From: Alphaproteobacteria bacterium
GTDB lineage: Bacteria > Pseudomonadota > Alphaproteobacteria > CAAHEQ01 > UBA3637
Assembly (NCBI GenBank): GCA_045660045.1
Contig: JAZRDB010000012.1
Span: forward strand, 55,869 to 119,868
Direction of reading: 5' to 3'
Length of the DNA: 64,000 nt
Shown here in pieces: positions 3,408 through 63,561 of this stretch; position 1 is the stretch's first letter; every line of letters starts with the position of its first letter. A program made the translations under genes and the position numbers. The notes below the pieces were generated by a model, which was not told the DNA's origin, searched no databases, and saw only the letters and a list, made by a program, of their open reading frames with translations.

Positions 3408-4544
3408 ATGCGATCAAAAGTTATCTTTATTATGATTCTTTTGTTCTCTGCTTCCGTCTTTGCCTTTGGTGGTGGCGGCGGTGGCGGTGGCCGAGATCGT
3501 GTTCGCAAACAATATGGCATGAACTCTATGGGGATTTATACTGACCCAGATCACCCTATCGATCCTCCGATTTTTGGAGAATGTGACGATCCAAACGCAC
3601 ATTATAATGAACACGACCTATGTATATGCAACGATGGATATCAAAAAGAAGATACTATCTGCGTTATCAACGCTTGTCGTGATTTTGTTCCATCCGGTTG
3701 TCGCACAGAATGTTCTTCCTCGGGCGGCTCAGCATCATATACAGAATGTCACGGAACAGGAACCTGTGTAGGCAATGCATGTGAGTATGACGAACAACAT
3801 GATTGTAATCCGGCATGCGGTGTGTGCAAAAAATGTGACACATCCAATGGCATCTGCATTACCGATAGCGAACAAGAAGGTTTGACTTGCGCTGGTAAAT
3901 CTGTTTGTCAATCAGGAAGTTGTGTTTGTGATAGTGATAGAATCATTAACGGGAAAACCTGTTGTCCTGTTGGGACAAAACCAAACGCAGCCAAGGATGA
4001 GTGCGTTGTTGACACGGCAGAAAATTGCGACACAGGATATATATATAGTTATGATGACAACGCATGTATTCCTTGCGCAGCCGCAGATGGCAAGTCAACC
4101 CCATGGCTGGCTTGCCAACAATGTGGCATGATTTATTCTAAAAATAGAACTTGCCATAATCAACCAGCACCTGGCTTTATTGTAGATGATGCAAGAAACA
4201 CTTATGAGTGTGACTCTAATGTAGAAGCATTTGGGGTTCTGTCCAAAGAAATGTGTAACGTCTGTAAAGGTGTGCGTTTCTACGGCAAAAAAGGATCTAG
4301 ATATTATTGTGTTCGTTGTGACTATGGAGATGCTTATGAGCAGGGATTTATTGCACCACAAAATGAAGATTGTACAGGGGAATATGGATGTCCCGACAGG
4401 CGCGTAGTTGAGAATTCATTGTGCAAATGTGCAACAACCACAATAAAAGAAGAACGTTGGATGCCCAAGTGGGATAACACAACCCAACAATTTTTACCAC
4501 CCGTGAAGACAAACGTTACTATCTGTCCTGCGCCAGAACCTTAA
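3408..4544 (+). CDS. secreted cysteine-rich repeat protein, paralog 1 (signal peptide + Gly8 module)
   Basis: Start set at ATG 3408 (GAGG 6 nt upstream), by analogy with the paralogs. N-terminus MRSKVIFIMILLFSASVFA/FGGGGGGGGRDR. The rest is dense in Cys with CxxC and CxC spacing. Confidence 0.8.
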   Translation: MRSKVIFIMILLFSASVFAFGGGGGGGGRDRVRKQYGMNSMGIYTDPDHPIDPPIFGECDDPNAHYNEHDLCICNDGYQKEDTICVINACRDFVPSGCRTECSSSGGSASYTECHGTGTCVGNACEYDEQHDCNPACGVCKKCDTSNGICITDSEQEGLTCAGKSVCQSGSCVCDSDRIINGKTCCPVGTKPNAAKDECVVDTAENCDTGYIYSYDDNACIPCAAADGKSTPWLACQQCGMIYSKNRTCHNQPAPGFIVDDARNTYECDSNVEAFGVLSKEMCNVCKGVRFYGKKGSRYYCVRCDYGDAYEQGFIAPQNEDCTGEYGCPDRRVVENSLCKCATTTIKEERWMPKWDNTTQQFLPPVKTNVTICPAPEP

Positions 4545-4575: not shown

Positions 4576-5487
4576 ATGAAACTTTTAAAAACATTATTTT
4601 GTTGTGCATCCATCGGAATGATTTCAGTGGCACAAGCACAATCTATGCAAGAATTGGATGTCTGTCAAAACCTTGTGTTAGAAGCTGAAACAGAATATGA
4701 TGTCACCACCTATGATGATTGTGGCTTTAATGATCTGCGCACAGCAATTGCTTATTGGGCACCATTGGCCGAACAAAACAAGTGGGGCAACGCCTTATAT
4801 GAAATTTACAAACGCCATGCCGATTATCCCAATATTAAACACTATCTTTACATGGCGGCCAAATTTGGCCAATCAAACTCTTTGGTCTTGGTGGGGCATG
4901 AATTGTTTGATCAGGGCAAAGTAGCCGAAGCTATGCGCTATTACAATGTGGCAATTCATGGTGACTTAGATGAAGAAACTCAAGGCGTTATTACGGGACG
5001 TTTGGCAATGCTCTATGTAAATCCGAACAGCCCGTACTATGATATTAACAAATCATTACCATTACTGCAAAAAGCCGCATTACAACGTCAAGCGCAACCA
5101 AACAATGTCTTGGGTGTGTTATCGTTGTTCGGGATGGGCGGTTTACCACAAAATGCGGAAGAATCTTTCAAATATTTTTGGCGGGCTATTTTGCTGGGTT
5201 GTCCTGCAGCCGAAGAAAACCTGGGATTTTTCTTGTTAGCAAAAGACAAAAAAATTAACAATGATACTTTGAAATCAGAACTGTTAGCGCGTGCTTATTC
5301 TTGTGATGCCGTTGCTCAGACAAGCACAGAATACCCACCTTATCATCTTACATTCAATCCACAACAATGCGCAGATTTAAATTATTATGCACAGCGATTA
5401 GTGGATACTTCCCTGCCCTTTACGGGAAAAGAGGAGTGTGCATTTAGCGCTGATATGAGTCAAATGGCCGATTATTTAAGTCAATAA
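4576..5487 (+). CDS. secreted Sel1-like (SLR/TPR-type) repeat protein
   Basis: Signal peptide MKLLKTLFCCASIGMISVAQA/QS. Repeats of the Sel1 type (A..YY..A...G...A...LA.LY, LGVLSLFGMGGLPQNAEESFKYFWRAILLGCPAAEENLGFFLL). Confidence 0.75.
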   Translation: MKLLKTLFCCASIGMISVAQAQSMQELDVCQNLVLEAETEYDVTTYDDCGFNDLRTAIAYWAPLAEQNKWGNALYEIYKRHADYPNIKHYLYMAAKFGQSNSLVLVGHELFDQGKVAEAMRYYNVAIHGDLDEETQGVITGRLAMLYVNPNSPYYDINKSLPLLQKAALQRQAQPNNVLGVLSLFGMGGLPQNAEESFKYFWRAILLGCPAAEENLGFFLLAKDKKINNDTLKSELLARAYSCDAVAQTSTEYPPYHLTFNPQQCADLNYYAQRLVDTSLPFTGKEECAFSADMSQMADYLSQ

Positions 5488-5618
5488 AAAATTTAAAAAG
5501 CAGAAAACGAGATGCGCAAATTTTTATTATTAAGTTCAATTTTTGTGGCAAGTACAGTCCTCGCCTTTGGTGGTGGCGGAGGTGGTGGTCGCACCCGTCG
5601 TTTTTATGAACGCCATGG
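5448..5618 (+). repeat. direct repeat copy 1: last 40 nt of the Sel1 gene + 24-nt spacer + first 107 nt of paralog 2
   Basis: Hand alignment to 8312-8482 shows about 6 mismatches in about 171 nt. Similarity decays after this point. Confidence 0.9.
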
Positions 5619-8259
5619 TGGTGTAGATACCATTGGTGTCCACATTCATGAAAATGAGGAAAAGCCCGATATTCATTTTTGTAATCCCTGTGAGGATCCT
5701 GTGGATGATCAATGTGTACCCAGAACTTGTGGCGACAATCAACATTGTGATGCACAACAAGACAAATGCGTTTGCGATAATGATAATATGTACTATGGCC
5801 CAGCTGGATCTTGCACACTCTGCTCTGACACTGGTAAAATTTGGAATGGCACCACCTGCGTTTGTGATACCTCTGCACACTTAGTTGATGATGGCAATGG
5901 GACTTGTATCTGTAATAATGCTGAGAGCTATTATGGTGATCCTGCTTCTTGCACACTCTGCTCTGACACTGGTAAAATTTGGAATGGTGCCGCCTGTGTC
6001 TGTGATCCTACAAGCTATGACCCTGTAGACAATGAATGCCTGCCTAAATGTGAAACCTATCAACAACGTGATTCACAAAACGTCTGTCAAGATGTGATTT
6101 GTAGCTTGAATGCCAACATTTATGATGCAAATGATAATCAGGTTTGTGTATGCCCTGAACACCGCGATACAACAAACAATATTTGTGGTGATTGCATCTC
6201 AGAAACTTCATGGCAAACATGGACTCAACCAATTTTAACATCTAACGGCACAATGGGAGTTTCTGATTTCGCTTGTAATCAATCAACTTATCGTGGAGTA
6301 AGATATGCTTGGCGTGCCTTTGATGGAACCAATTTAGACCCAGAAGAAGATTGCTGGCACAATAATGATTATGACTCACCATCTTGGATGTCTTGGTATA
6401 CATCTAGTCCTATTAAGATAAATACCATTACTATTGTGAACAGACCAGAAGGGCCAGAGACTCAAGAACACACAGCTCTCAAAAATTTTGAAATTCAATA
6501 CTCAGATGACAATAGCAATTGGAATACACAATATTCTGGTGTAAATCCCATGGGCTATGGACTTAGCACAACACACAATGTAAATGCTACAACTGCTCAC
6601 AATTATTGGCGTATATATATTACAACAACTTATTACAATGAACATGTCACCATTGGAGAACTCATCATTGATGCGGATACACCACAAGAAACGGCAAGTT
6701 ATGTCATTGACGAAAATGGCATGTGCCAAGAGGTTGTGCCTTGTCCAACAGGTTACACCGGTGATGGTTGCACCGAATGTGCCGACGGTTATGAAGAGAT
6801 TGATGACGTATGTGTTGAAGTCTGTCCAGAAGGACAAGAACGTGCCTCAAATGGAGAATGCCTTGCCGTGTGTCCAGATGAGAATGTTTCTCGTAGCGTA
6901 CGAGATGGCACATGCTCCATTTGTAAAAATGGGAATGTGTATTTATCCTATAAGGATGATCCTTGTGGTACAGCAACTTCATTCTCAGGGTGTAAGAGCA
7001 ATGATGAGTGCAATCCAGGTCAGTATTGTTATCTAACAAACACTTCCTCTTCTTGTAATACACCAAACAATGGTGAATGTCGCTCTTTAGGCAATACCGA
7101 CACCGTAAATATTGAAGGTCTTGGCGTTGTCAGAGAAAGTTATCAGACCATGACATGGTGGGGCGCAGAGCAATGGTGTCAAGCACAAGGCATGAAATTA
7201 TTAGACGCCACTAAAATTGGTTGTTATTTCAGCGGCACCACCAATCCTATTGCCAGTGCAGATTCCTGGGGCTGGTGTTGCGCTGAATCCACATCTTGTG
7301 GTGATTGGCGTGGTTCATGGAATGGCACTAATATCACAAATGAATCAAATGTCAATGCGCACAGTGATATTATGATTAAATTAAGACAGGGGCTTGGAAC
7401 AAGAAACGAGCGCATGTGGGCTAGTACATCCACTGGTCCAGCAAATCTTTGTCAAGCACCTATCGTCAATATAAACCAAGGGGTCTTGGGATATGATCCT
7501 CGTTACGAAGATAATGATAACTATGGTGGTTATTTTACAGCATTATGCGAATGTGCAAGTGGTTATACTTATGATGAATTGACAGAAACATGTGTCCCAG
7601 GTTCTGCTGCTTGTCCAACTGGTTACACTGGTGATGGTTGCACTGAGTGTGATGAAGGATATGAAATGTTTAACGAAGCATGTATTCTATCCTGTGAAAG
7701 TGGGCAATACCATGACAACAATGGGCTTTGCCAAACATGTCCAAGCACTTTAAGTGGAAGAACATCGGAGTATGTGTGTCTTGCCTGCACCCCTGGTGGT
7801 TATTGGACAGGATCGGCCTGTAAGAATCCTTGTGCCGAGGGCAAATTCCATGTCTTATCTGGTGACTGCCAATCTTGTGATCCATCCGTTTACTCCACAG
7901 CTGCTGCAGCAACACCAGCAGAATGTGCGCTTTGTGGTGATCAACGGCGTGTCTTTGAAGTAACAGAAGCAGAATCTACATCCTACTACTGTGCTCCAAA
8001 AGATTGTGAATCTGGCAAATACCATGCGAACACGGGAACTTGTCGTTCGTGCAGTAGTTACACGGCTCCATCAACGGTTGAAGAGTGTGCTGTATGTGCG
8101 GGATATGGAACGCCACGTTATGTAGACTCCAGCGATGAAAATAAGTGCAAAAAGTGTCCAGCAGACATAGCTAGTGCTACTTCAGCCGAGCAATGCGAAC
8201 AATGCTTTGGCGGCATATACTCTGGTGGAATATGCCATACAGGGGCAGAACCAAGTTAA
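5512..8259 (+). CDS. secreted cysteine-rich multidomain protein, paralog 2 (EGF/furin-like repeats, discoidin-like, C-type-lectin-like)
   Basis: N-terminus MRKFLLLSSIFVASTVLA/FGGGGGGGRTRRFYERHGGVD. Two CPTGYTGDGCTEC motifs. An AWRAFDG...W...FEIQYSDDNSNW segment (F5/8 type C-like). MTWWGAEQWCQAQGMKLL...YFTALCEC (CTLD-like). Confidence 0.85.
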   Translation: MRKFLLLSSIFVASTVLAFGGGGGGGRTRRFYERHGGVDTIGVHIHENEEKPDIHFCNPCEDPVDDQCVPRTCGDNQHCDAQQDKCVCDNDNMYYGPAGSCTLCSDTGKIWNGTTCVCDTSAHLVDDGNGTCICNNAESYYGDPASCTLCSDTGKIWNGAACVCDPTSYDPVDNECLPKCETYQQRDSQNVCQDVICSLNANIYDANDNQVCVCPEHRDTTNNICGDCISETSWQTWTQPILTSNGTMGVSDFACNQSTYRGVRYAWRAFDGTNLDPEEDCWHNNDYDSPSWMSWYTSSPIKINTITIVNRPEGPETQEHTALKNFEIQYSDDNSNWNTQYSGVNPMGYGLSTTHNVNATTAHNYWRIYITTTYYNEHVTIGELIIDADTPQETASYVIDENGMCQEVVPCPTGYTGDGCTECADGYEEIDDVCVEVCPEGQERASNGECLAVCPDENVSRSVRDGTCSICKNGNVYLSYKDDPCGTATSFSGCKSNDECNPGQYCYLTNTSSSCNTPNNGECRSLGNTDTVNIEGLGVVRESYQTMTWWGAEQWCQAQGMKLLDATKIGCYFSGTTNPIASADSWGWCCAESTSCGDWRGSWNGTNITNESNVNAHSDIMIKLRQGLGTRNERMWASTSTGPANLCQAPIVNINQGVLGYDPRYEDNDNYGGYFTALCECASGYTYDELTETCVPGSAACPTGYTGDGCTECDEGYEMFNEACILSCESGQYHDNNGLCQTCPSTLSGRTSEYVCLACTPGGYWTGSACKNPCAEGKFHVLSGDCQSCDPSVYSTAAAATPAECALCGDQRRVFEVTEAESTSYYCAPKDCESGKYHANTGTCRSCSSYTAPSTVEECAVCAGYGTPRYVDSSDENKCKKCPADIASATSAEQCEQCFGGIYSGGICHTGAEPS
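5809..5987 (+). repeat. in-gene tandem duplication: identical 41-mer at 5809-5849 and 5947-5987 (period 138 nt = 46 aa)
   Basis: tcttgcacactctgctctgacactggtaaaatttggaatgg occurs twice and encodes SCTLCSDTGKIWNG in both units. Confidence 0.9.
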
Positions 8260-8311: not shown

Positions 8312-8482
8312 CGCTGATATGAGTCAAATGGCCGATTATTTAAGTCAATAAAAAATTTAAAAAGGAGAAAACAAGATGCGCAAATTTTTATTATTAAGTT
8401 CAATTTTTGTGGCAAGCACAGTCCTCGCCTTTGGTGGCGGCGGAGGTGGTGGTCGTACCCGTCATTTTTATGAACGCCATGG
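8312..8482 (+). repeat. direct repeat copy 2; its first 40 nt (8312-8351) are a relic of a Sel1-gene 3' end (..ADMSQMADYLSQ*)
   Basis: Near-identical to 5448-5618. There is no Sel1 gene body upstream of it, so the fragment is a duplication or deletion scar. Confidence 0.9.
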
Positions 8483-35374: not shown

Positions 35375-36097
35375 TTATTCACCACGAGCGCGAGTTTTCC
35401 TTCTGGGTAGTGGTTTTGGATCATGATGCTCCAGACGGGGTAGTGATTTTGCTTCATATTGCTTCAGAAGATGCGCTGGTATTAATTTTTCTTTATAGCG
35501 ATCATAAATCACTTTTTTCTCTTGATTGCCATCAGTCCATGTCGTTACTTCCACTTGGTCTGTTTTTTCCTCAATAATTTTATCGGCACGCAAGCCTCCC
35601 TTTCCATTCACAATTCCTTTTGCCGCCGACACCACACCCTCTCTTCTTTTCCAAACCAACCACAGTGCCGGATCTCCCTTTTGAAGGCTCTGTTTTAAAG
35701 GCACCAAAACGTATAATCCATTATCGGGATCTCCTCGCATACCAATCGTGTTTCCACAACCATCACTAAAATACGTTTCCTCTCCATCCCAATTTGAATT
35801 TTTAACTCTCGAATATATGTATCGACATTTCTCATACATATCACGACAATAATTCTCCAAGGTCAGATTTGGGTCCATTAGCGTAGTCATCCCTAACATC
35901 TGAGGACCATTATTGTAACTTACCAACTCTTCAGAAACCATTGGTCCATCCTCTATACATCGCGCCATGTTTTCTATTCTCTCTCTCATATACATATCCT
36001 CAGATAAAATCTGATCTGATTTCCTCCCCCTCATACGATCTTTAGAATGATCCTCATAAGGACCACATAGTTTCCTGATTATATCCGACATACTCAT
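35375..36097 (-). CDS. hypothetical protein (240 aa), no signal peptide, no recognisable family
   Basis: Strong RBS (GAAGGAGAATAAAAG ATG) and its own terminator. The C-terminus is basic (PRRKTRARGE). Confidence 0.65.
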   Translation of the reverse strand: MSMSDIIRKLCGPYEDHSKDRMRGRKSDQILSEDMYMRERIENMARCIEDGPMVSEELVSYNNGPQMLGMTTLMDPNLTLENYCRDMYEKCRYIYSRVKNSNWDGEETYFSDGCGNTIGMRGDPDNGLYVLVPLKQSLQKGDPALWLVWKRREGVVSAAKGIVNGKGGLRADKIIEEKTDQVEVTTWTDGNQEKKVIYDRYKEKLIPAHLLKQYEAKSLPRLEHHDPKPLPRRKTRARGE

Positions 36098-36426: not shown

Positions 36427-37167
36427 ATGGCTGATTTTTTATTCACACAACGAAAACTTTTAAAAGAATATCTGGACAATGTGTATCAGGCGTATCCCAG
36501 CAATGCCTTAAAGGATCTGGAGAAAAAGGATCCACCTTATTATGCTCATATTCGCGCCTGTGAACATGAATATGCACGCTTGACAGATTGCGCCCAACAA
36601 GCACAGGCTCAACAAGCTCCTTTGCCAAACATATCAAAAGCACAGCAATTGACATTGTCTTTATTCCCTGCGGCTTTACCAACACCGCCCAAACAAACCA
36701 TCAAGCAGCAATTGCAGGGCAGCACAACATTCACCCCACTTCCATCTATCGTCTCAGCAGGATTTAATAAAGCACATACTGGCATCAATTGGCCACACTA
36801 TGAAAACATGCTGAAATTATTTGCTTTAGGCTATCTCTACCATGGCAAATTAACTCAGCAACAACAAAAAGACAAGGATGATTTAACTCAAGCCATTGAA
36901 GAAGTTGGAAATGCCAAATTCAAGAAAAAACATTTAACCGCTGAAGAAATTACTGAACGAGATTCACGTGTCTATATGCGTTATGGTCAAAATGTGATTC
37001 GGGCCATGGCTGACCCCGATCCACTTGTTTCTGAAAGACGTTTAAAAGATTTACGTTCTGAAATTCCTGATACGCGTAATAATAACAATGCCACTCAATT
37101 ACACAAAATGATGAGCAAGGCAAAGACCATTGCCATGATACTGCAAAATCGCTATAAATCGCAATAA
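36427..37167 (+). CDS. hypothetical protein (246 aa), Gln-rich, no recognisable family
   Basis: Consensus promoter plus strong RBS. Its stop abuts the stop of the convergent gene smpB. Confidence 0.65.
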   Translation: MADFLFTQRKLLKEYLDNVYQAYPSNALKDLEKKDPPYYAHIRACEHEYARLTDCAQQAQAQQAPLPNISKAQQLTLSLFPAALPTPPKQTIKQQLQGSTTFTPLPSIVSAGFNKAHTGINWPHYENMLKLFALGYLYHGKLTQQQQKDKDDLTQAIEEVGNAKFKKKHLTAEEITERDSRVYMRYGQNVIRAMADPDPLVSERRLKDLRSEIPDTRNNNNATQLHKMMSKAKTIAMILQNRYKSQ

Positions 37168-38027: not shown

Positions 38028-38537
38028 TTGACTCCAGAGGTCGCACAAAAAGACTCTGCCTTAAATCAAGATTTAATTCAATGCGCTCAATGGTTAAAAA
38101 GCAACAAAGACAAGGCGGGATCGGAAGAATATATGAACAACCTTGCTGCCCTTTCAATTATGGCAGAAAAGGGATATCCGATGGCGGGATTTGAATATGC
38201 CAAATTTTTAGCTGATGAAGGCGAATTAAACAAAGCCGCAAATTTCTTTGATAGAGCAAAGAAAAACGAAAATGCGGGGCCAGAATTAAAAAAAGAAATA
38301 CAGGCTTTTGTATCCTCCACTTCTAATGACAACGAAGAAAACAACAAAGACCCCAATAAAAAGCATGTTATCAAACGCAGTTCTTTGAAAAACGCCTTTG
38401 CCGAACGGGCCGATGATGACAATAAATCCGGTATCGTAAAAGCTTATGAACAAGCTCAATTGATAAAGGCACAACAAGAACGAAATGAAGGTTATTTACC
38501 ACACCATTCATATGTCCCCCCAAAAAAAGAAGATTAA
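38028..38537 (+). CDS. Sel1/TPR-like repeat protein, possibly a frameshifted (pseudo)gene whose true start is ATG 37960
   Basis: SLR-like segment [43 protein letters not shown]. The only in-frame start is TTG 38028, which has a poor RBS. Confidence 0.45.
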
Positions 38538-40534
38538 AGTTCTTTTAATTCCAATTCTTCCAACTTTTTAATGCGATCACGCAACTTAGCAGCACGCTCA
38601 AAATCCAAATCTTCCGCGGCGGCAAGCATTTGTTTGCGTAAATCCTCCACCGTTTCTGGGACTTGTTCAATGTCTTTCACTGTATTACCCGTCAAATCAT
38701 TAAAGTCTTTAATTAAGTCGGGAATCGCTTTTTGAATACCCTTAGGCGTAATGTTATGCTCTTTATTAAAGGCCATTTGTTTATCACGCCGACGCTTCGT
38801 TTCTGTCAAAGCATACTCCAAAGAACCTGTCATTTTATCTGCATACAAAATTACCCTGCCCTCGGCATTGCGAGCAGCACGCCCTATTGTTTGCACAAGA
38901 GATGTGCTAGAGCGCAAGAATCCTTCTTTATCAGCATCCAAGATTGCCACCAAAGCAACCTCTGGAATATCTAAACCTTCTCTGAGCAGGTTAATGCCCA
39001 CCAACACATCAAAATCCCCCAAACGCAATTCGCGGATAATTTGGATACGCTCCAAAGTATCAATATCCGAGTGCATATATTTTGCATGCACCCCATTTTC
39101 ATTCAGGTAATCTGTCAAATCTTCGGCCATTTTTTTCGTTAATGTTGTCACCAACACACGATGACCTTTAGCTGATTCTAACTGACATTCTGCAATCAAG
39201 TCTTCTACCTGAGTTGCCACAGGACGCACAATGCATTCTGGATCCAACAAGCCTGTCGGGCGAATAATCTGTTCTGTAAAGACACCTTTTGTTTGCTCTA
39301 ATTCCCATGGACCAGGGGTTGCTGACACAAAAATTGTATCCGGACGCATTTTATCCCATTCTTCAAACTTCAACGGGCGGTTGTCCATACAGGACGGCAA
39401 GCGAAAACCGTATTCTGCCAGGGTTGTTTTTCGTGCTCTATCACCTTTATACATAGCACCCAACTGCGGAATCGTCACATGACTTTCGTCCACAAAAACC
39501 AAAGCATCCTTTGGCAAATACTCAAACAGAGTCGGTGGCGCTTCGCCGGGTTTGCGCCCCGTCAGGTGCCGCGAATAGTTTTCAATGCCTTTGCACGAGC
39601 CCGTTGCTTCCATCATTTCCAAATCATAGCGCGTGCGTTGTTGTAAACGTTCGGCTTCCAACGGTTTATTCTCGGCTGCATAAAATTCCAATCGCTCTTT
39701 CAATTCTTCTTTAATTGTTTTAATGGCTTGCGACAAAGCTGGACGGGGCGTCACATAGTGGCTGGCGGGATAAATCGTGATTTCAGGCAAGGCCATTTTC
39801 TTTTTACCCGTCAGCGGGTCAAACTCGCACACATCTTCCACTTCATCTCCAAACAAAGAAACACGCCACGCCAAATCTTCATAGTGGCTTGGAAAAATAT
39901 CAAGCACATCCCCATTTTGTCGGAAACAACCACGTTCAAAGGCCACATCATTTCGTTTATATTGCAACTCAGTCAAACGGCGCGTTAAATCTTGCACATC
40001 CACCGTGTCGCCCTTTTTAATGGGAAAGGCCATCTGTGAATAACTTTCCGCATCACCAATACCATAAATACACGATACAGACGCCACCACAATCACATCT
40101 CTGCGCTCCAATAAATGCCGTGTGGCAGAGTGGCGCAATCGGTCGATTTGCTCATTGATTGCACTATCTTTTTCAATATAGGTATCCGTCTTTGGAATAT
40201 ATGCTTCTGGCTGATAATAATCATAGTAAGATACAAAATATTCCACGGCGTTATTTGGAAAAAATGTTTTCATTTCCGAATAAAGTTGTGCCGCCAATGT
40301 TTTGTTATGTGCCAAAATTAATGTTGGCCGTTTCATTTTGGCGATCACATGCGCCATCGTGAATGTTTTACCTGAGCCAGTAATACCCAATAAGACTTGA
40401 TTATGTTCACCCGTCTTTAAACCATCCACCAAACTTTTAATGGCTTCGGGTTGATCTCCTGCGGCTGAAAAAGGGGACACCAAATCAAAGTCTGCGTCCC
40501 CCTGCAAATCCTGTTTCTCATACAAAGGAATCAT
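38534..40534 (-). CDS. uvrB: excinuclease ABC subunit B
   Basis: [14 protein letters not shown]-terminal UVR motif ([15 protein letters not shown]). Confidence 0.97.
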
Positions 40535-41655
40535 TTTTTGTTTTTCCTCTTTGTAGGCTTTTTCTTAACTGGCACTTTTTGTGTTTTTATTACTGCCTTT
40601 TTACCGACCTTTTTTTCTTCTTTAATACTTACTTTATTACGCCAAGCTGCCCAGGTTTGTTTAAAAGCGGCTTTCGTATCTTGCCACATTGACCGAATTG
40701 TTGGGGGAGGAGCTCCCGCACCTTTCAAGCGATTATATGTGTCCAACAAAATCACTAAAATGATAAGAATTAATGCACTTATTTTATTCGATTTCCACAT
40801 CAACGCCCCAATTAATGATAAAATCAACAGGCGATAAAAGATAACCCGTATAATGGGAGTTGGATTGTGGTTGGTGAGTACCTTTTCAAGAGCAAACTCC
40901 CCTTTTTGCATGCCAAACGGATGTAATCCAAACCACGCCAAAGCAAAGAAAAATATTTCAAACAGATAATAGCTTAACAACGCCAACGCAGATCCATACG
41001 ATCCTGCCACAAAACAAAGAGCAATAATTCCGCCCATCACAAATCCCAAAACTGCCGTCGCATAGGAACCAAAATGTCCTTCTCCCTCACGCACTAATAT
41101 GTTTAACATTCCCCACAACGGAGCCAACATCAACAAGCTTAAAACAGCAATTGCTGGCGATCCAAACAAGCTGAGCACATACATTGTTGTAAAGGCCATT
41201 GCCCATGTACCCACCGTCAAAAAATTAAGTAAAGGCAAGCGATCAAAGACCATCACCAACCCCATAACACCACTCCATACTGCTGTCAAAATCAAGGCAC
41301 TCCATCCATCAATTGGGCTTGCGGGCATTGCTTTATGCAAAACATATACACCCAAAGCACTTACCAATGGCACCCAAATCGCTTTTTGTTTCGTTTTTTG
41401 AAAACAAGCTGCACAATACATGACAGCAAAGCAAGCGCACAGAATCCATGTATATTCCACCAACGCTGGATTCCCAAAAACAACACTAGCCCCAGCTAAT
41501 CCTAAAATTAAAGATCCTAACAAAAAGGTACCACATCCTGTTTCCATCGAGGCCGGCACTTTTTGTGTTGTCTGCTTTTGAATCCACCCATAAAAACCAT
41601 ACATAGCTCCAAAATAAAGGCACACTAAGACTACAGAAAACCAGATGAATTGCAT
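40531..41655 (-). CDS. polytopic inner-membrane protein of unknown function with Lys-rich C-terminal tail
   Basis: About 10 hydrophobic segments; tail [30 protein letters not shown]; 4-nt overlap with the uvrB start. Confidence 0.6.
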
Positions 41656-52437: not shown

Positions 52438-53208
52438 ATGGATAATCAAACAAATCAAATTCAAAACTTAAGCGCCCAACCTGTACAGCAAAAAAAGTAT
52501 AAACGAAATGAATGGGTTGAGTTGTTGTGGCTTGCATTGTTGGCATTATGTATTCGTTCTTGCGCCTTTGAACCATATAATATTCCATCAAGTTCTATGG
52601 TGCCCACTCTTTTGGTTGGTGATTATTTATTTATCAGCAAATACGATTATGGCTATTCTAAACACTCCTTTCCTTTTTCAATTCCTTTGATCCCCAAGGG
52701 ACGTATTTTCAATAATCCTCCGCAACGTGGAGATGTCGTGGTCTTCAAATGGCCGAAGGACAAAAAAACAGATTATATTAAACGCGTTATTGGTCTGCCA
52801 GGAGATACGATTCAAATGGTAAAAGGACGCTTGTACATCAATGATGTCTTGGTGGGTCGTGAAGAACTGGGACGCGAAAATTGGCTGACAGAATCTGGAT
52901 GGCAACAATATACTCGTTATGAAGAACATCTTCCCAATGGTGTCAAACATGACATTTATGAATTAAATGATCACATGATTTTAGACAACACAGACCCTAT
53001 TATTGTTCCCGAAGGTCATTACTTTATGTTGGGAGACAATCGTGATAATTCTCAAGATAGCCGTTATTTTGGCCTTGTCCCAGAGGAATTATTGGAAGGA
53101 AAAGCCCGTTTGATTTTCTATTCCACCAATGGAAATGGATGGTTTTTCCAATTCTGGCGTTGGACAGATTTCTTGCGTTTGGAACGTATTTTCACGGAGA
53201 TTCATTAA
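52438..53208 (+). CDS. lepB: signal peptidase I
   Basis: SSSMVPTLLVGD, KRVIGLPGD, GDNRDNSQDSR. Start trimmed to ATG 52438. Confidence 0.93.
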   Translation: MDNQTNQIQNLSAQPVQQKKYKRNEWVELLWLALLALCIRSCAFEPYNIPSSSMVPTLLVGDYLFISKYDYGYSKHSFPFSIPLIPKGRIFNNPPQRGDVVVFKWPKDKKTDYIKRVIGLPGDTIQMVKGRLYINDVLVGREELGRENWLTESGWQQYTRYEEHLPNGVKHDIYELNDHMILDNTDPIIVPEGHYFMLGDNRDNSQDSRYFGLVPEELLEGKARLIFYSTNGNGWFFQFWRWTDFLRLERIFTEIH

Positions 53209-55986: not shown

Positions 55987-56508
55987 ATGCAACACACAAA
56001 TGAATCTGGTCGGTCTATGTCCGAAATGTTGGCCGTTTTGGCCATCATTGGCGTTTTATCTGTTGGTACAATTGCGGGTTTTCGCCATATGATAAACAAG
56101 CAAAAAATCAATGACATTATTAACACGATCAATTTAAATAGCATTCAAATTTTAAGCAGTTTAACCCATCAAAAGTTCGATACACCCGATGCAATGGATG
56201 CATTCTTGACACAATATACAGCACAAACAGGCGGATATAACATCTCATTCAAGGCGCCTCGTGATACTGACCATGAATTTACAGGAACAGAATTCGTTGC
56301 CGAAATTACTGACCAAAAAGGTGACCGCATTAAAGGATCAATGTGCCGTCGCTTATTAACAACCATGGTCAGGGTTAACGGTGTTTCCGATATTGACTTT
56401 ACCGTCCGTAATGAACCAATGGAAGATGGAACGGTGGAAGATGTGACAATGCGATTAAGCGGCAAAGCGGTGGATTTAAACGCTTTGTGCGGAAAAGACG
56501 TTTTATAA
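55987..56508 (+). CDS. type IV pilin / pseudopilin-like protein (class III signal peptide)
   Basis: MQHTNESG/RSMSEMLAVLAIIGVLSVGTIAGF. There is a Gly at -1, a Glu at +5 and a hydrophobic helix; RBS GGGAGGAG. Confidence 0.7.
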   Translation: MQHTNESGRSMSEMLAVLAIIGVLSVGTIAGFRHMINKQKINDIINTINLNSIQILSSLTHQKFDTPDAMDAFLTQYTAQTGGYNISFKAPRDTDHEFTGTEFVAEITDQKGDRIKGSMCRRLLTTMVRVNGVSDIDFTVRNEPMEDGTVEDVTMRLSGKAVDLNALCGKDVL

Positions 56509-59438: not shown

Positions 59439-60500
59439 TTAAGTAACGGCAAAGTCTTTGACTAATTTTTGCAAAATCCGTTCTGTATGGGGTTTCAACC
59501 TCACGCCGACATTAAAAAATGACTGTGGATAATTTTTCAACATGCTACCTACCTTTTGGGCCTCTTTTTCACCATCCACCACTTTTCGGGCAAATGAGAC
59601 AATCGCACATTTCTTTAAAGTATGAAAATCCATCATAACTTCCTTGCCTTTTTTGTGTGCTAGTTCGTTATAACACCAACATAATTTTTCCAACATATCC
59701 TCACCAAAAATGGGAAACAATCGAGCCATACCATGATACACCAATCCATGATAATGGGTCCCCGCCAAATCAATAATACCCCACGAATGTGTTTTATCGT
59801 CATATAAAATATTACCTTGATGAAAATCACTGTAATAAGGTCCCTTCATTTTACATACATTTACATTATTTTCAATGGATTTTAATAAAGAATCATAGCA
59901 TTCAATTTCTTGACGTGAGAAATTGTACACTTTAAAAAGACATTTGATACGTTTCAGATCTTTTGCTTTTATATAGTGCTTATTTGAAATACCAGATAAG
60001 AAAGCTTTTTTATAACAAGCAAACCTATGCACACATTTCTTGTACTTCAATTTCAGGGTGTCTTTTATTGAAATAGGAGCCTCTATTTTACCAAAAATTT
60101 CTTTATCTACATTGACATCCAATGTATTTAAATCCAACATAAATGTCGCAAAATCAAAAATTGCATGTGCCTGTTGATCGGCGGACAATTTATTAAACAT
60201 CTTTTCATTAAAAGGACGACCAGAAACGTAATTTTCATGCAATTGCCACTCTCCGTTTCTGTATATCAATTCTCCAGAAGCAAGGTGCACTTTTTTTGTT
60301 TTTGGCATATAATACCCAATCGTCATACCCCTTCTTGAAAAACGCAACCATTTTTGCTCTTCCGTTTCTTTTTTAGGTAGGCAAACACATATTTTTTTCT
60401 TGTTGTTATTGGAACACAAAAAAACTTCTTGGTTGGCACCTTCACCGATTTTACGGATACAATTCACATTCTTTGGAACCTTAACATTTGCTGAAAACAT
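59439..60500 (-). CDS. protein-kinase-fold phosphotransferase (APH/choline-kinase-like)
   Basis: Gly-rich loop IGEGANQEVF, catalytic-loop-like SDFHQGNILYD and IIDLAG. The gene is very AT-rich. Confidence 0.65.
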   Translation of the reverse strand: MFSANVKVPKNVNCIRKIGEGANQEVFLCSNNNKKKICVCLPKKETEEQKWLRFSRRGMTIGYYMPKTKKVHLASGELIYRNGEWQLHENYVSGRPFNEKMFNKLSADQQAHAIFDFATFMLDLNTLDVNVDKEIFGKIEAPISIKDTLKLKYKKCVHRFACYKKAFLSGISNKHYIKAKDLKRIKCLFKVYNFSRQEIECYDSLLKSIENNVNVCKMKGPYYSDFHQGNILYDDKTHSWGIIDLAGTHYHGLVYHGMARLFPIFGEDMLEKLCWCYNELAHKKGKEVMMDFHTLKKCAIVSFARKVVDGEKEAQKVGSMLKNYPQSFFNVGVRLKPHTERILQKLVKDFAVT

Positions 60501-60583: not shown

Positions 60584-61030
60584 CTAGGAACGACGTAAAA
60601 ACTTATAAAATCTACTTGGATGACGCGATTGTTGAACAATCTTGTCAATCCAACCATTATATTCCCGACGCAACGCCACACGCGGAAAATCTGGCACATC
60701 AATTGTCACCGTCTCGCCCACTTTAATCCCTTTTAACGCCGGATCAAAACATTTTTTATTGATGAATTTATGCAAACTACGCTCAATCAAACACATATTG
60801 GAAAACTTATTTTGTCCGCCGCCAGAAAGCGGAACAATATGATGCACATCAAAACCAGATGGTGCCAGTCCACGTGACGCACGGATTAAATCAATTTCAT
60901 GACTATATGGATTCAAACGTCCCGTGCGGTAAAGCCACAACACAAACACTTTGTTCAACCGTTTGTGGTCAAATTCTTTACGCAAACGCTTTGTTACTTC
61001 CGGAGGCTGTAATGTAAATTTAACCGTCAT
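60584..61030 (-). CDS. HNH endonuclease-domain protein
   Basis: FDVHHIVPLSGGGQNKFSNMCLIERSLHKFIN (H-N-H spacing). It starts immediately after the recG stop. Confidence 0.7.
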   Translation of the reverse strand: MTVKFTLQPPEVTKRLRKEFDHKRLNKVFVLWLYRTGRLNPYSHEIDLIRASRGLAPSGFDVHHIVPLSGGGQNKFSNMCLIERSLHKFINKKCFDPALKGIKVGETVTIDVPDFPRVALRREYNGWIDKIVQQSRHPSRFYKFLRRS

Positions 61031-63083: not shown

Positions 63084-63491
63084 CTAACGCTTTTTGACTG
63101 GACGCAATGGCTTTGACCACGATCCATCCGGCAATTTAACAGATCCATCTGCATACACTGTTGAATTGAATAAAGGTAGCTTCTCAAAACTTTCTAAAAT
63201 TTCACGACAATCGGAAGGATTTCCTTTTTTTTGTTGTTGCATGGCGTCCCATTTGGCTTCAATATATTCTTGCGCCTGTTTTCTTTCTAATTCATCTGTA
63301 GCCGCTTGGTTTGCCAGTAATCTGGAAGAAATTAATTCATAGTCTTCCAACTTCTTATCTGCCCCGCATGCCACAGCCAATCCCGCAATCATCCCCAATT
63401 GTTCTGCATCTGACATTTTTTTAATATTTTGTGCCAGTGTTGGTTGCACGAAAAACAAACATAAAAGAATAAAACACATATTTTTTTTCAT
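63084..63491 (-). CDS. secreted hypothetical protein (~135 aa)
   Basis: Start trimmed to MKKNMCFILLCLFFVQPTLA/QN (ATG 63491, RBS GAAAGGAG). 7-nt gap to recG. Confidence 0.6.
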   Translation of the reverse strand: MKKNMCFILLCLFFVQPTLAQNIKKMSDAEQLGMIAGLAVACGADKKLEDYELISSRLLANQAATDELERKQAQEYIEAKWDAMQQQKKGNPSDCREILESFEKLPLFNSTVYADGSVKLPDGSWSKPLRPVKKR

Positions 63492-63561
63492 GTTAACTCC
63501 TTTCTTTTCCTTCATTAGGCCACATTTTTATAAAAATCACAAGGTGTTTTTAAATTTTTTA

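Follow-up and report, generated by a model that had tools for sequence, protein, structure and literature searches.

The stretch analyzed here, 64,000 nucleotides of contig JAZRDB010000012.1 from an Alphaproteobacteria bacterium (hereafter the window), has a GC content of 42% and carries, within 6 kb, three genes for Cys-rich proteins that we refer to as paralogs 1 to 3. All three proteins open with the same kind of leader: a signal peptide is followed directly by a short tag, which consists of Phe, a run of glycines, a basic spacer and a second motif of the type GVDAIGVH. This leader is real, conserved, under selection and undescribed. An earlier note on this DNA had pointed out an N-terminal module common to the three proteins, and this is borne out by their sequences as well as by the profile search presented below. 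The three N-termini quoted there match the translations of the open reading frames (ORFs) exactly; only the end of the span given with them, position 3545, is too short, since the 52 quoted residues end at 3563.

The positions of the genes and of their parts are compiled in Table 1. The predicted signal peptides have the features of Sec substrates, i.e. a basic n-region, a hydrophobic h-region and small residues at -3 and -1. GAGG lies 7 nt 5' of the ATG of paralog 1 (3408). According to a six-frame scan, the window contains only three runs of five or more glycines, one per paralog, each directly after an ...A-F junction; their codons are a mixture of GGT, GGC and GGA, which makes each run a (GGN)n tract. 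Over residues 1-45, paralogs 2 and 3 are near-identical, and they also have a later region in common; paralog 1 shares with them only the N-terminal module and a general richness in Cys. The sole homolog of paralog 1 that was found, P0042, combines the module and a paralog-1-like Cys-rich region with a paralog-3-like C-terminal C-type-lectin-like domain, and this architecture suggests that all three window genes belong to one mosaic family. A LepB-like ORF, read by eye, is situated at 52438-53208 of the window.

Table 1. Position and composition of the leader-bearing genes and of related features in the window.
Feature	Position	Strand	Description
Paralog 1	3408..4544	+	378 aa; module and Cys-rich cargo without C-type-lectin-like signature
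Paralog 1, signal peptide	3408..3464	+	19 aa, ...SVFA; AxA rule
Paralog 1, predicted mature tag	3465..3539	+	F, Gly8 (3468-3491), RDRVRKQY, GMNSMGIY
Sel1-like gene between paralogs 1 and 2	4576..5487	+	Secreted protein; weak Sel1-repeat match (16 bits, below cutoff)
5' cassette, copy A	5448..5628	+	3'-terminal 40 nt of the Sel1-like gene; intergenic spacer and its ribosome-binding site; opening 117 nt of paralog 2
Paralog 2	5512..8259	+	915 aa; module, EGF-like Cys-rich repeats, F5/8 type C (discoidin) domain, paralog-3-aligned C-type-lectin-like region, further Cys-rich repeats
Paralog 2, signal peptide	5512..5565	+	18 aa, ...TVLA
Paralog 2, predicted mature tag	5566..5643	+	F, Gly7 (5569-5589), RTRRFYERHG, GVDTIGVH
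5' cassette, copy B	8312..8492	+	Upstream of and inside paralog 3; holds a relic of the 3' end of the Sel1-like gene
Paralog 3	8376..9278	+	300 aa; module and C-type-lectin-like domain
Paralog 3, signal peptide	8376..8429	+	18 aa
Paralog 3, predicted mature tag	8430..8507	+	F, Gly7 (8433-8453), RTRHFYERHG, GVDAIGIH
Type IV pilin / pseudopilin-like gene	55987..56508	+	Stand-alone gene, GRSMSEMLAVLAIIGVLS

Conservation, spread and selection of the leader

A leader profile of 47 positions, run with the word filter off, was compared with 1.84 billion representative proteins. At E <= 1e-3 it matched 235 protein clusters, of which 118 reached E <= 1e-10; in the 150 matches listed, the aligned segment lies at the N-terminus or no more than a few tens of residues from it, and the proteins are between 71 and 1981 aa in length. 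Paralog 3 itself scores 72.6 bits (E = 1.7e-15) and paralog 2 scores 68 bits (E = 4.8e-14). Judged by these scores, the N-terminal module is shared far beyond chance; nor is it confined to three recent duplicates, the case in which the earlier note would have abandoned it. Homologs of paralog 3 (41 matches) are metagenomic proteins or come from metagenome-assembled genomes (MAGs), and most of them open with the same kind of leader. In a full-length alignment of 31 sequences, whose mean column identity is 25%, the invariant positions are A18, F19, G20, G21 and G37, the structural cysteines and a few other residues of the cargo.

The statistics of the leader are based on 150-156 parsed family members. 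The signal peptide starts with M-[KR]-K and is 18-19 residues long in 125 of 156 sequences. Position -1 before the Phe is occupied by Ala in 153 of 156 sequences, position -3 by Ala in 106 and by Val in 47 (together likewise 153 of 156); this pattern fits a cut by signal peptidase I before the Phe and is consistent with the site after VFA or VLA that the earlier note had assumed. On the predicted mature side, the Phe is invariant (156 sequences), with Gly at +2 in 149 and at +3 in all 156. Positions 4 and 5 hold Gly-Gly in some members and a hydrophobic pair in the others, e.g. Ile, Val or Met followed by Phe. The following spacer is rich in Gly, Ser, Lys, Arg, Thr and His, contains no Cys, carries a net charge of +1 to +4 in 152 of 156 members, and measures 12-14 residues in 126 out of 150. 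It leads into the GVDAIGVH motif (G 156, V 145, I 136, G 150, V 132 and H 152 among 156 sequences), after which comes [I/F/V]-[G/N]-G.

By these counts, the core of the family is F-G-G, a cationic spacer and GVDAIGVH, and not an oligoglycine. The number of glycines after the Phe is two in 77 of 150 members, three to four in 33, and five to seven in another 33. The Gly7-8 runs of the window are one variant of a variable spacer, plausibly grown by slippage of the (GGN)n tract, and the Arg-rich stretch behind them is how the spacer, which is cationic throughout most of the family, looks in this window. The conserved shape drawn in the earlier note – Phe, Gly7-8 and an Arg-rich motif – is present in the window trio, but only F-G-G and G-V-x-x-I-G-V-H are kept family-wide, and the second of these motifs had been overlooked.

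The same counts bear on the interpretation, put forward in that note, that the exposed oligoglycine is itself functional and serves as a nucleophile in a sortase-like transpeptidation. All three window genes encode Gly7-8, which would be a good acceptor in principle, and extra glycines improve the acylation by AatD (PMC7943197). Yet just 33 of 150 leaders possess five or more glycines, the 77 leaders with only two continue with Ile/Val/Met-Phe, and a Phe precedes the glycines in every member, i.e. the N-terminus left by the canonical cut would be Phe. Furthermore, an outer membrane beta-barrel protein and a TolC-like protein among the window ORFs indicate that the host is diderm, and neither a sortase-type signal or enzyme nor a C-terminal sorting motif was seen. 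We give the idea of a functional oligoglycine hardly any credence.

Some further resemblances and variants of the leader deserve mention. The combination of F-G-G with a Lys/Arg stretch superficially recalls the F-G-G-F or Y-G-G-F start of nociceptin and dynorphin-type peptides, which we take to be most likely a coincidence; the residue after F-G-G is Gly, Ile, Val or Met in the present family, not Phe as in those peptides. A similarity to BLIP-II, in which an RCC1-like blade reads 'AWGGN...SGVDAI' (PDB 1jtd_B / 9t9p_A), was rejected, given a profile E-value of 0.027, E ~4 for the best single stretch and no support from Pfam. The resemblance is probably due to chance, the alternative being an origin of the motif from a single blade. 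Finally, a minority of leaders (P0003, P0032, P0139, P0143, P0145, P0159 and P0160; loci L006, L007, L010 and L037) have an extension of 12-20 residues before the signal peptide with the motif ...LQLPPPC-x-NKSLILK..., which recalls an extended signal peptide region and is absent from the window trio.

The taxonomic spread was examined with a degenerate DNA pattern for F-G-G ... G-V-x-x-I-G-[VI]-H that required the codon TTT for Phe; the pattern is narrow, and the copy numbers it yields are lower bounds. Applied to 185,579 species-representative genomes, it gave 13 matches, and the true ones are on two genomes only, namely Rumen_Coassembly_mag_2400, an uncultured Alphaproteobacteria bacterium isolate with eight loci, and Alphaproteobacteria bacterium UBA3650. 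Four of the 13 matches lie on high-GC contigs and have no module in translation, which is about the number expected by chance. The same pattern found 27 matches in JGI metagenomes: 18 true loci with 39-44% GC, from a handful of projects, and nine chance matches, again on high-GC sequences without a module in translation. One MAG contains at least 11 distinct genes with the module. Taken by its occurrence in these datasets, the module is a trait of a single lineage of uncultured low-GC rumen/gut Alphaproteobacteria.

Within the MAG that contains 11 paralogs, the leaders (signal peptide and tag) have a median identity of 81% compared with 38% for the remainder of the proteins (local alignments), and 43% of the leader codons for identical residues differ synonymously. 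High identity of the leaders in spite of these synonymous differences points to purifying selection that acts on the peptide; recent gene conversion alone would not account for it. Conversion does occur, as a cassette in the window demonstrates: its copies A and B (Table 1) are 95.6% identical across 181 nt, and hence the 5' end of paralog 2 or paralog 3 is a recent copy of the other. This is evidence that the leader and its upstream region were copied as a unit onto different cargo. It could be argued from this that the 5' end is kept as DNA, for the swapping or conversion of cargo as in antigenic variation, and that the encoded peptide is functionless. Both the mosaic cargo and the reach of the cassette into non-coding DNA and into the relic of the preceding gene are in favor of such a recombination cassette. 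However, the synonymous divergence in the MAG places the conservation at the protein level; the same protein-level pattern is found between paralog 1, whose leader DNA shows many synonymous differences, and paralog 2; and the motifs are kept across different genomes. A purely recombinational role of the leader is thus very improbable in our view.

Cargo domains and pilin-like relatives

An AlphaFold2 model of paralog 3, computed with the family alignment, has a predicted local distance difference test score (pLDDT) below 50 for residues 1-47 and above 90 for much of the C-terminal domain. In this model, the tag forms a disordered extension at the N-terminus and makes no packing contacts with the cargo. 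The predicted disorder, the Lys/Arg/Ser-rich spacer and a dibasic site in paralog 2 would all suit a passive tether or a pro-region, i.e. a flexible spacer or a propeptide that is clipped at basic residues and has no role in sorting. But passive linkers would not hold F-G-G and GVDAIGVH over 156 sequences with otherwise unrelated cargo, and a propeptide tuned to one fold is not expected on many types of cargo. Dibasic sites, moreover, are not conserved, and many members have a GSKSTTYKG spacer. We judge a mere tether or pro-region to be improbable. The dibasic R-T-R-R of paralog 2 stands right after the Gly run (5590-5601), and the equivalent position of paralog 3 reads R-T-R-H; a furin-like site at R-T-R-R was considered as a general explanation of the spacer and dropped because of the R-T-R-H in paralog 3 and the absence of a dibasic site from most family members.

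The cargo itself is diverse. Foldseek lists 50 matches in the PDB for the model of paralog 3, and all of them are C-type lectin-like (e.g. Ly49, PLA2R CTLD7, LLT1, CD23, DC-SIGN, natural killer cell receptors and snake-venom lectins). The probabilities reach 0.95, but the E-values range from 0.05 to 0.6, and the target-normalised TM-scores amount to ~0.4-0.6 for single-domain targets; Pfam Lectin_C does not match paralog 3. At best, the domain of paralog 3 is therefore C-type-lectin-like at the level of the predicted fold only. Residues 268-376 of paralog 2 correspond to an F5/8 type C (discoidin) domain, with 38.5 bits for PF22633 (cutoff 27.8) and 33.2 bits for PF00754 (cutoff 28.2). The cargo folds thus look like those of ligand-binding proteins, both by the structural model and by the domain matches. 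Across the family, the cargo has a median Cys content of 9%, its C-terminal ends read ...ALC[KERQ], and it has almost no Pfam matches apart from stray ones of the EGF, EB and Dumpy type (126 members scanned). Of 142 cargo regions, 47 bear a lectin-like signature, and 67 have neither this nor an NVYLSY signature; these mixed signatures suggest that one tag serves varied cargo. Single-linkage clustering merged nearly all of the cargo through shared Cys-rich repeats and hence provides no count of distinct cargo families.

Five homologs with lectin-like cargo of the paralog 3 type lack the FGG leader altogether (P0028, P0033, P0038, P0040 and P0041). They start with '...GRSMVEMLGVLAIIGVLS', in a divergent form in P0041, where a Gly is succeeded five residues on by Glu and then by a hydrophobic stretch, as is typical of prepilin-type N-termini. 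The Pfam N-methylation motif matches weakly, and AlphaFold2 predicts, with low confidence, a single helix over residues 10-63 that recalls the alpha-1 helix of type IV pilins. From these features, the five proteins look like modular pilins with a C-type-lectin-like module. The same binding domain is thus found either on a filament subunit or behind an FGG tag, and the tag, too, may place its cargo in or beyond the envelope; such a role is what the pilin-like relatives suggest for the FGG tag.

A stand-alone gene of the type IV pilin or pseudopilin kind, whose product has an N-terminus of the type seen in these five homologs, is present in the window itself (Table 1). The N-terminus of its product is MQHTNESGRSMSEMLAVLAIIGVLS..., and the predicted mature protein starts with Arg, not with the usual Phe or Met. 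It is flanked by a QueH-like gene and the gene for ribosomal protein S1, both read by eye, and its surroundings show no pilus machinery. Metagenomes often contain orthologs (56-91% identity), and NCBI annotates those of Alphaproteobacteria MAGs as 'prepilin-type N-terminal cleavage/methylation domain-containing protein' or as 'type II secretion system protein'.

Search for a reader of the tag and proposed role

Candidate partners of the tag were sought by all-against-all BLAST of the ORFs from 12, then from 30 module loci (239 kb). At the 30 loci, there is no recurrent neighbor beyond the family itself and housekeeping synteny. Genes of the YkuD/L,D-transpeptidase, Lnt-like (CN-hydrolase) or Aat-like types were found neither near the 30 loci nor among the ten window ORFs scanned with Pfam, and the co-occurring peptidase or transpeptidase genes that the earlier note had proposed to look for are likewise missing near these loci. 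It follows from the lack of a recurrent neighbor that a reader of the tag, if there is one, would be encoded elsewhere. We also weighed the Sel1-like gene that separates paralogs 1 and 2 as a possible partner and rejected it, since no such gene adjoins the family at other loci; it is peculiar to this window.

A small lipoprotein-like ORF (MKKILSVILICSALCACQHT...) occurs beside module genes at two loci of a rumen MAG (L007, 4875-5210, and L011, 5153-5452), which are too few for an association. In the window, seven of the ten ORFs scanned have no Pfam match at E <= 1e-3 (35375-36097, 36427-37167, 38133-38537, 40531-41655, 59439-60500, 60584-61030 and 63084-63515; 134-374 aa). Their surroundings are of the housekeeping kind: besides a cluster of ribosomal protein genes, UvrB, PheST and RecG were recognized by eye. 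Although a large ribosomal protein operon region is included, no tRNA, tmRNA or Rfam family was detected at the gathering score in the 64 kb.

Our favored reading of the module, which we advance tentatively and at somewhat less than even confidence, is that of a lineage-specific N-terminal tag for sorting or docking, recognized in trans and carried by mosaic Cys-rich adhesin-like proteins of uncultured low-GC rumen/gut Alphaproteobacteria. To go by the sequences, these proteins would be exported by Sec and cleaved by signal peptidase I at [A/V]-x-A↓F. As conservation and modelling suggest, the mature protein would then open with an unstructured tag of ~26-30 residues, laid out as F-G-G, a cationic spacer rich in Gly/Ser/Thr/His and of constrained length, and G-V-D-A-I-G-V-H-[IFV]-[GN]-G. 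In a third step, a conserved component of the envelope, encoded elsewhere in the genome, would read the tag in trans and either export the folded, disulfide-rich cargo or keep it at the cell surface; the tag would thereby take the role that the N-terminal module of type IV pilins has in the sister proteins with the same cargo. A bolder version is that of a new sorting signal located behind the signal peptide and provided with dedicated machinery (e.g. an enzyme that modifies the N-terminus, together with an exporter, or else a pilus/secretin receptor), which displays rapidly diversifying, eukaryote-like Cys-rich binding proteins. This version is possible, albeit rather doubtful.

Three observations weigh against a docking tag of this kind: the 30 loci reveal no recurrent neighbor that could act as its reader, the only gene in the window that might be connected with secretion machinery is the pilin-like one, and the constraint on the leader at the protein level could also be accounted for by covalent anchoring or processing.

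Comparison with known signals

Several established signals do not apply to the three paralogs. A lipobox is ruled out, as none of the 156 sequences has a Cys in the mature module; so is a Tat signal, with n-regions of the types MRK, MKK and MRS and no RR motif; and so is the identity of the three paralogs as prepilins or pseudopilins, which lack the Gly at -1, the Glu at +5 and the long hydrophobic helix. A C-terminal sorting motif is missing as well, and the earlier note had been right to set aside lipobox, Tat and C-terminal tags. Pfam and NCBIfam hold no model that matches the module, whether the three proteins, 126 family members or the bare module are searched (the latter finds nothing in Pfam even at E <= 10), and we found no relevant literature on the GVDAIGVH motif, on UBA3650 or on Cys-rich proteins of rumen Alphaproteobacteria. 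The assertion in that note that no signal of this shape has been described agrees with the lack of a model, but it disregards the N-terminal Gly-Gly tags of CexE/Aap and of BbpA from Coxiella.

In CexE/Aap of enteric E. coli, signal peptidase I cuts at A↓GGGNS, after which the Lnt homolog AatD attaches an N-acyl group to Gly1; a single Gly is enough, more glycines lead to more acylation, and the Aat system displays the resulting lipoprotein on the surface (PMC7943197). The FGG leader resembles this system in the predicted cut by signal peptidase I before a conserved Gly/Ser-rich N-terminus, and in the tolerance of additional glycines, which are helpful in CexE/Aap, where the tag alone directs a step after export. 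It differs in that Gly is residue +1 in CexE/Aap, whereas an invariant Phe separates the A-x-A site from Gly-Gly in the present family. In addition, there is no sequence similarity according to Pfam and NCBIfam, and the module has a second conserved motif as well as large Cys-rich cargo. Only a cut at A-F-G↓G, likewise in line with the -3/-1 rule, would turn Gly into residue +1; the canonical site is favored because of the strict Ala/Val at its position -3 (153 of 156).

In BbpA/BbpB of Coxiella, the N-terminal Gly-Gly is linked to meso-DAP by Ldt2, and the adduct GM-AEJ-GGPDYVPAPS was observed (PMC12729407, PMC11841132). These sources also report that outer membrane proteins of Brucella and Agrobacterium (Omp25, Omp2b and others) are attached through N-terminal Ala-Asp by L,D-transpeptidases. 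The likeness consists in a short conserved dipeptide at or beside the mature N-terminus, followed by a flexible stretch, and in a chemistry that uses the N-terminal amine. By contrast, BbpA and Omp25 are beta-barrels with a periplasmic N-terminus, whereas the present cargo is soluble, lectin-like and Cys-rich, with no barrel; furthermore, Gly-Gly is found at +2/+3 behind the Phe unless the cut is non-canonical. By analogy with these systems, the N-terminal amine as an acceptor has a real precedent, including one in Alphaproteobacteria.

The main rival to a docking tag is covalent anchoring at the N-terminus. Here the free alpha-amine (of Phe, or of Gly after a cut at A-F-G↓G) would be joined to meso-DAP by an L,D-transpeptidase or would be acylated by an enzyme like Lnt/AatD, giving a glycine-acylated surface lipoprotein. 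There are documented cases of each chemistry among tags that signal peptidase I cleaves (CexE, PMC7943197; BbpA, PMC12729407, PMC11841132), the host belongs to a class with known tethering, and an invariant F-G-G at a junction that permits the alternative cut fits the recognition site of an enzyme. On the other hand, the canonical cut exposes Phe and not Gly, the known peptidoglycan-tethered proteins are beta-barrels or lipoproteins and not soluble lectin-like cargo, and neither chemistry needs a second motif or a spacer of constrained length. The window ORFs scanned with Pfam and the surroundings of the 30 loci contain no gene of the YkuD, CN-hydrolase/Lnt-like or Aat-like kind, and similarity to CexE/Aap is lacking. 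On balance, we consider covalent anchoring unlikely, if still the strongest competitor of the docking tag.

The tag marks more than 200 unannotated protein clusters of gut/rumen Alphaproteobacteria that have never been cultured, and these proteins look like ligand-binding surface or secreted factors (lectin-like, discoidin, EGF-like). It therefore offers a handle to list the likely secreted and surface repertoire of these organisms and to seek the partner by phylogenetic profiling. Should the N-terminus prove to be modified, N-terminal anchoring chemistry would be extended to a new motif and a new class of cargo. The recognition of short sorting tags has repeatedly led to their machinery: the LPXTG tag was recognized first and sortase was found after it, and the N-terminal glycine of CexE led to AatD.

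Two further comparisons can be drawn. YSIRK-G/S signal peptides and the extended signal peptide region of autotransporters are conserved leaders that are thought to route many otherwise different surface proteins of one lineage. Their motifs sit within the signal peptide and are removed with it, whereas those of the present family follow the predicted cleavage site and would remain on the mature protein. Modular type IV pilins, such as PilB and PilC of Streptococcus sanguinis, carry adhesive modules; the likeness consists in the sister proteins described above, which mount the same lectin-like cargo on a prepilin-like N-terminus. The window trio differs from them by the absence of the prepilin motif and of the long hydrophobic helix.

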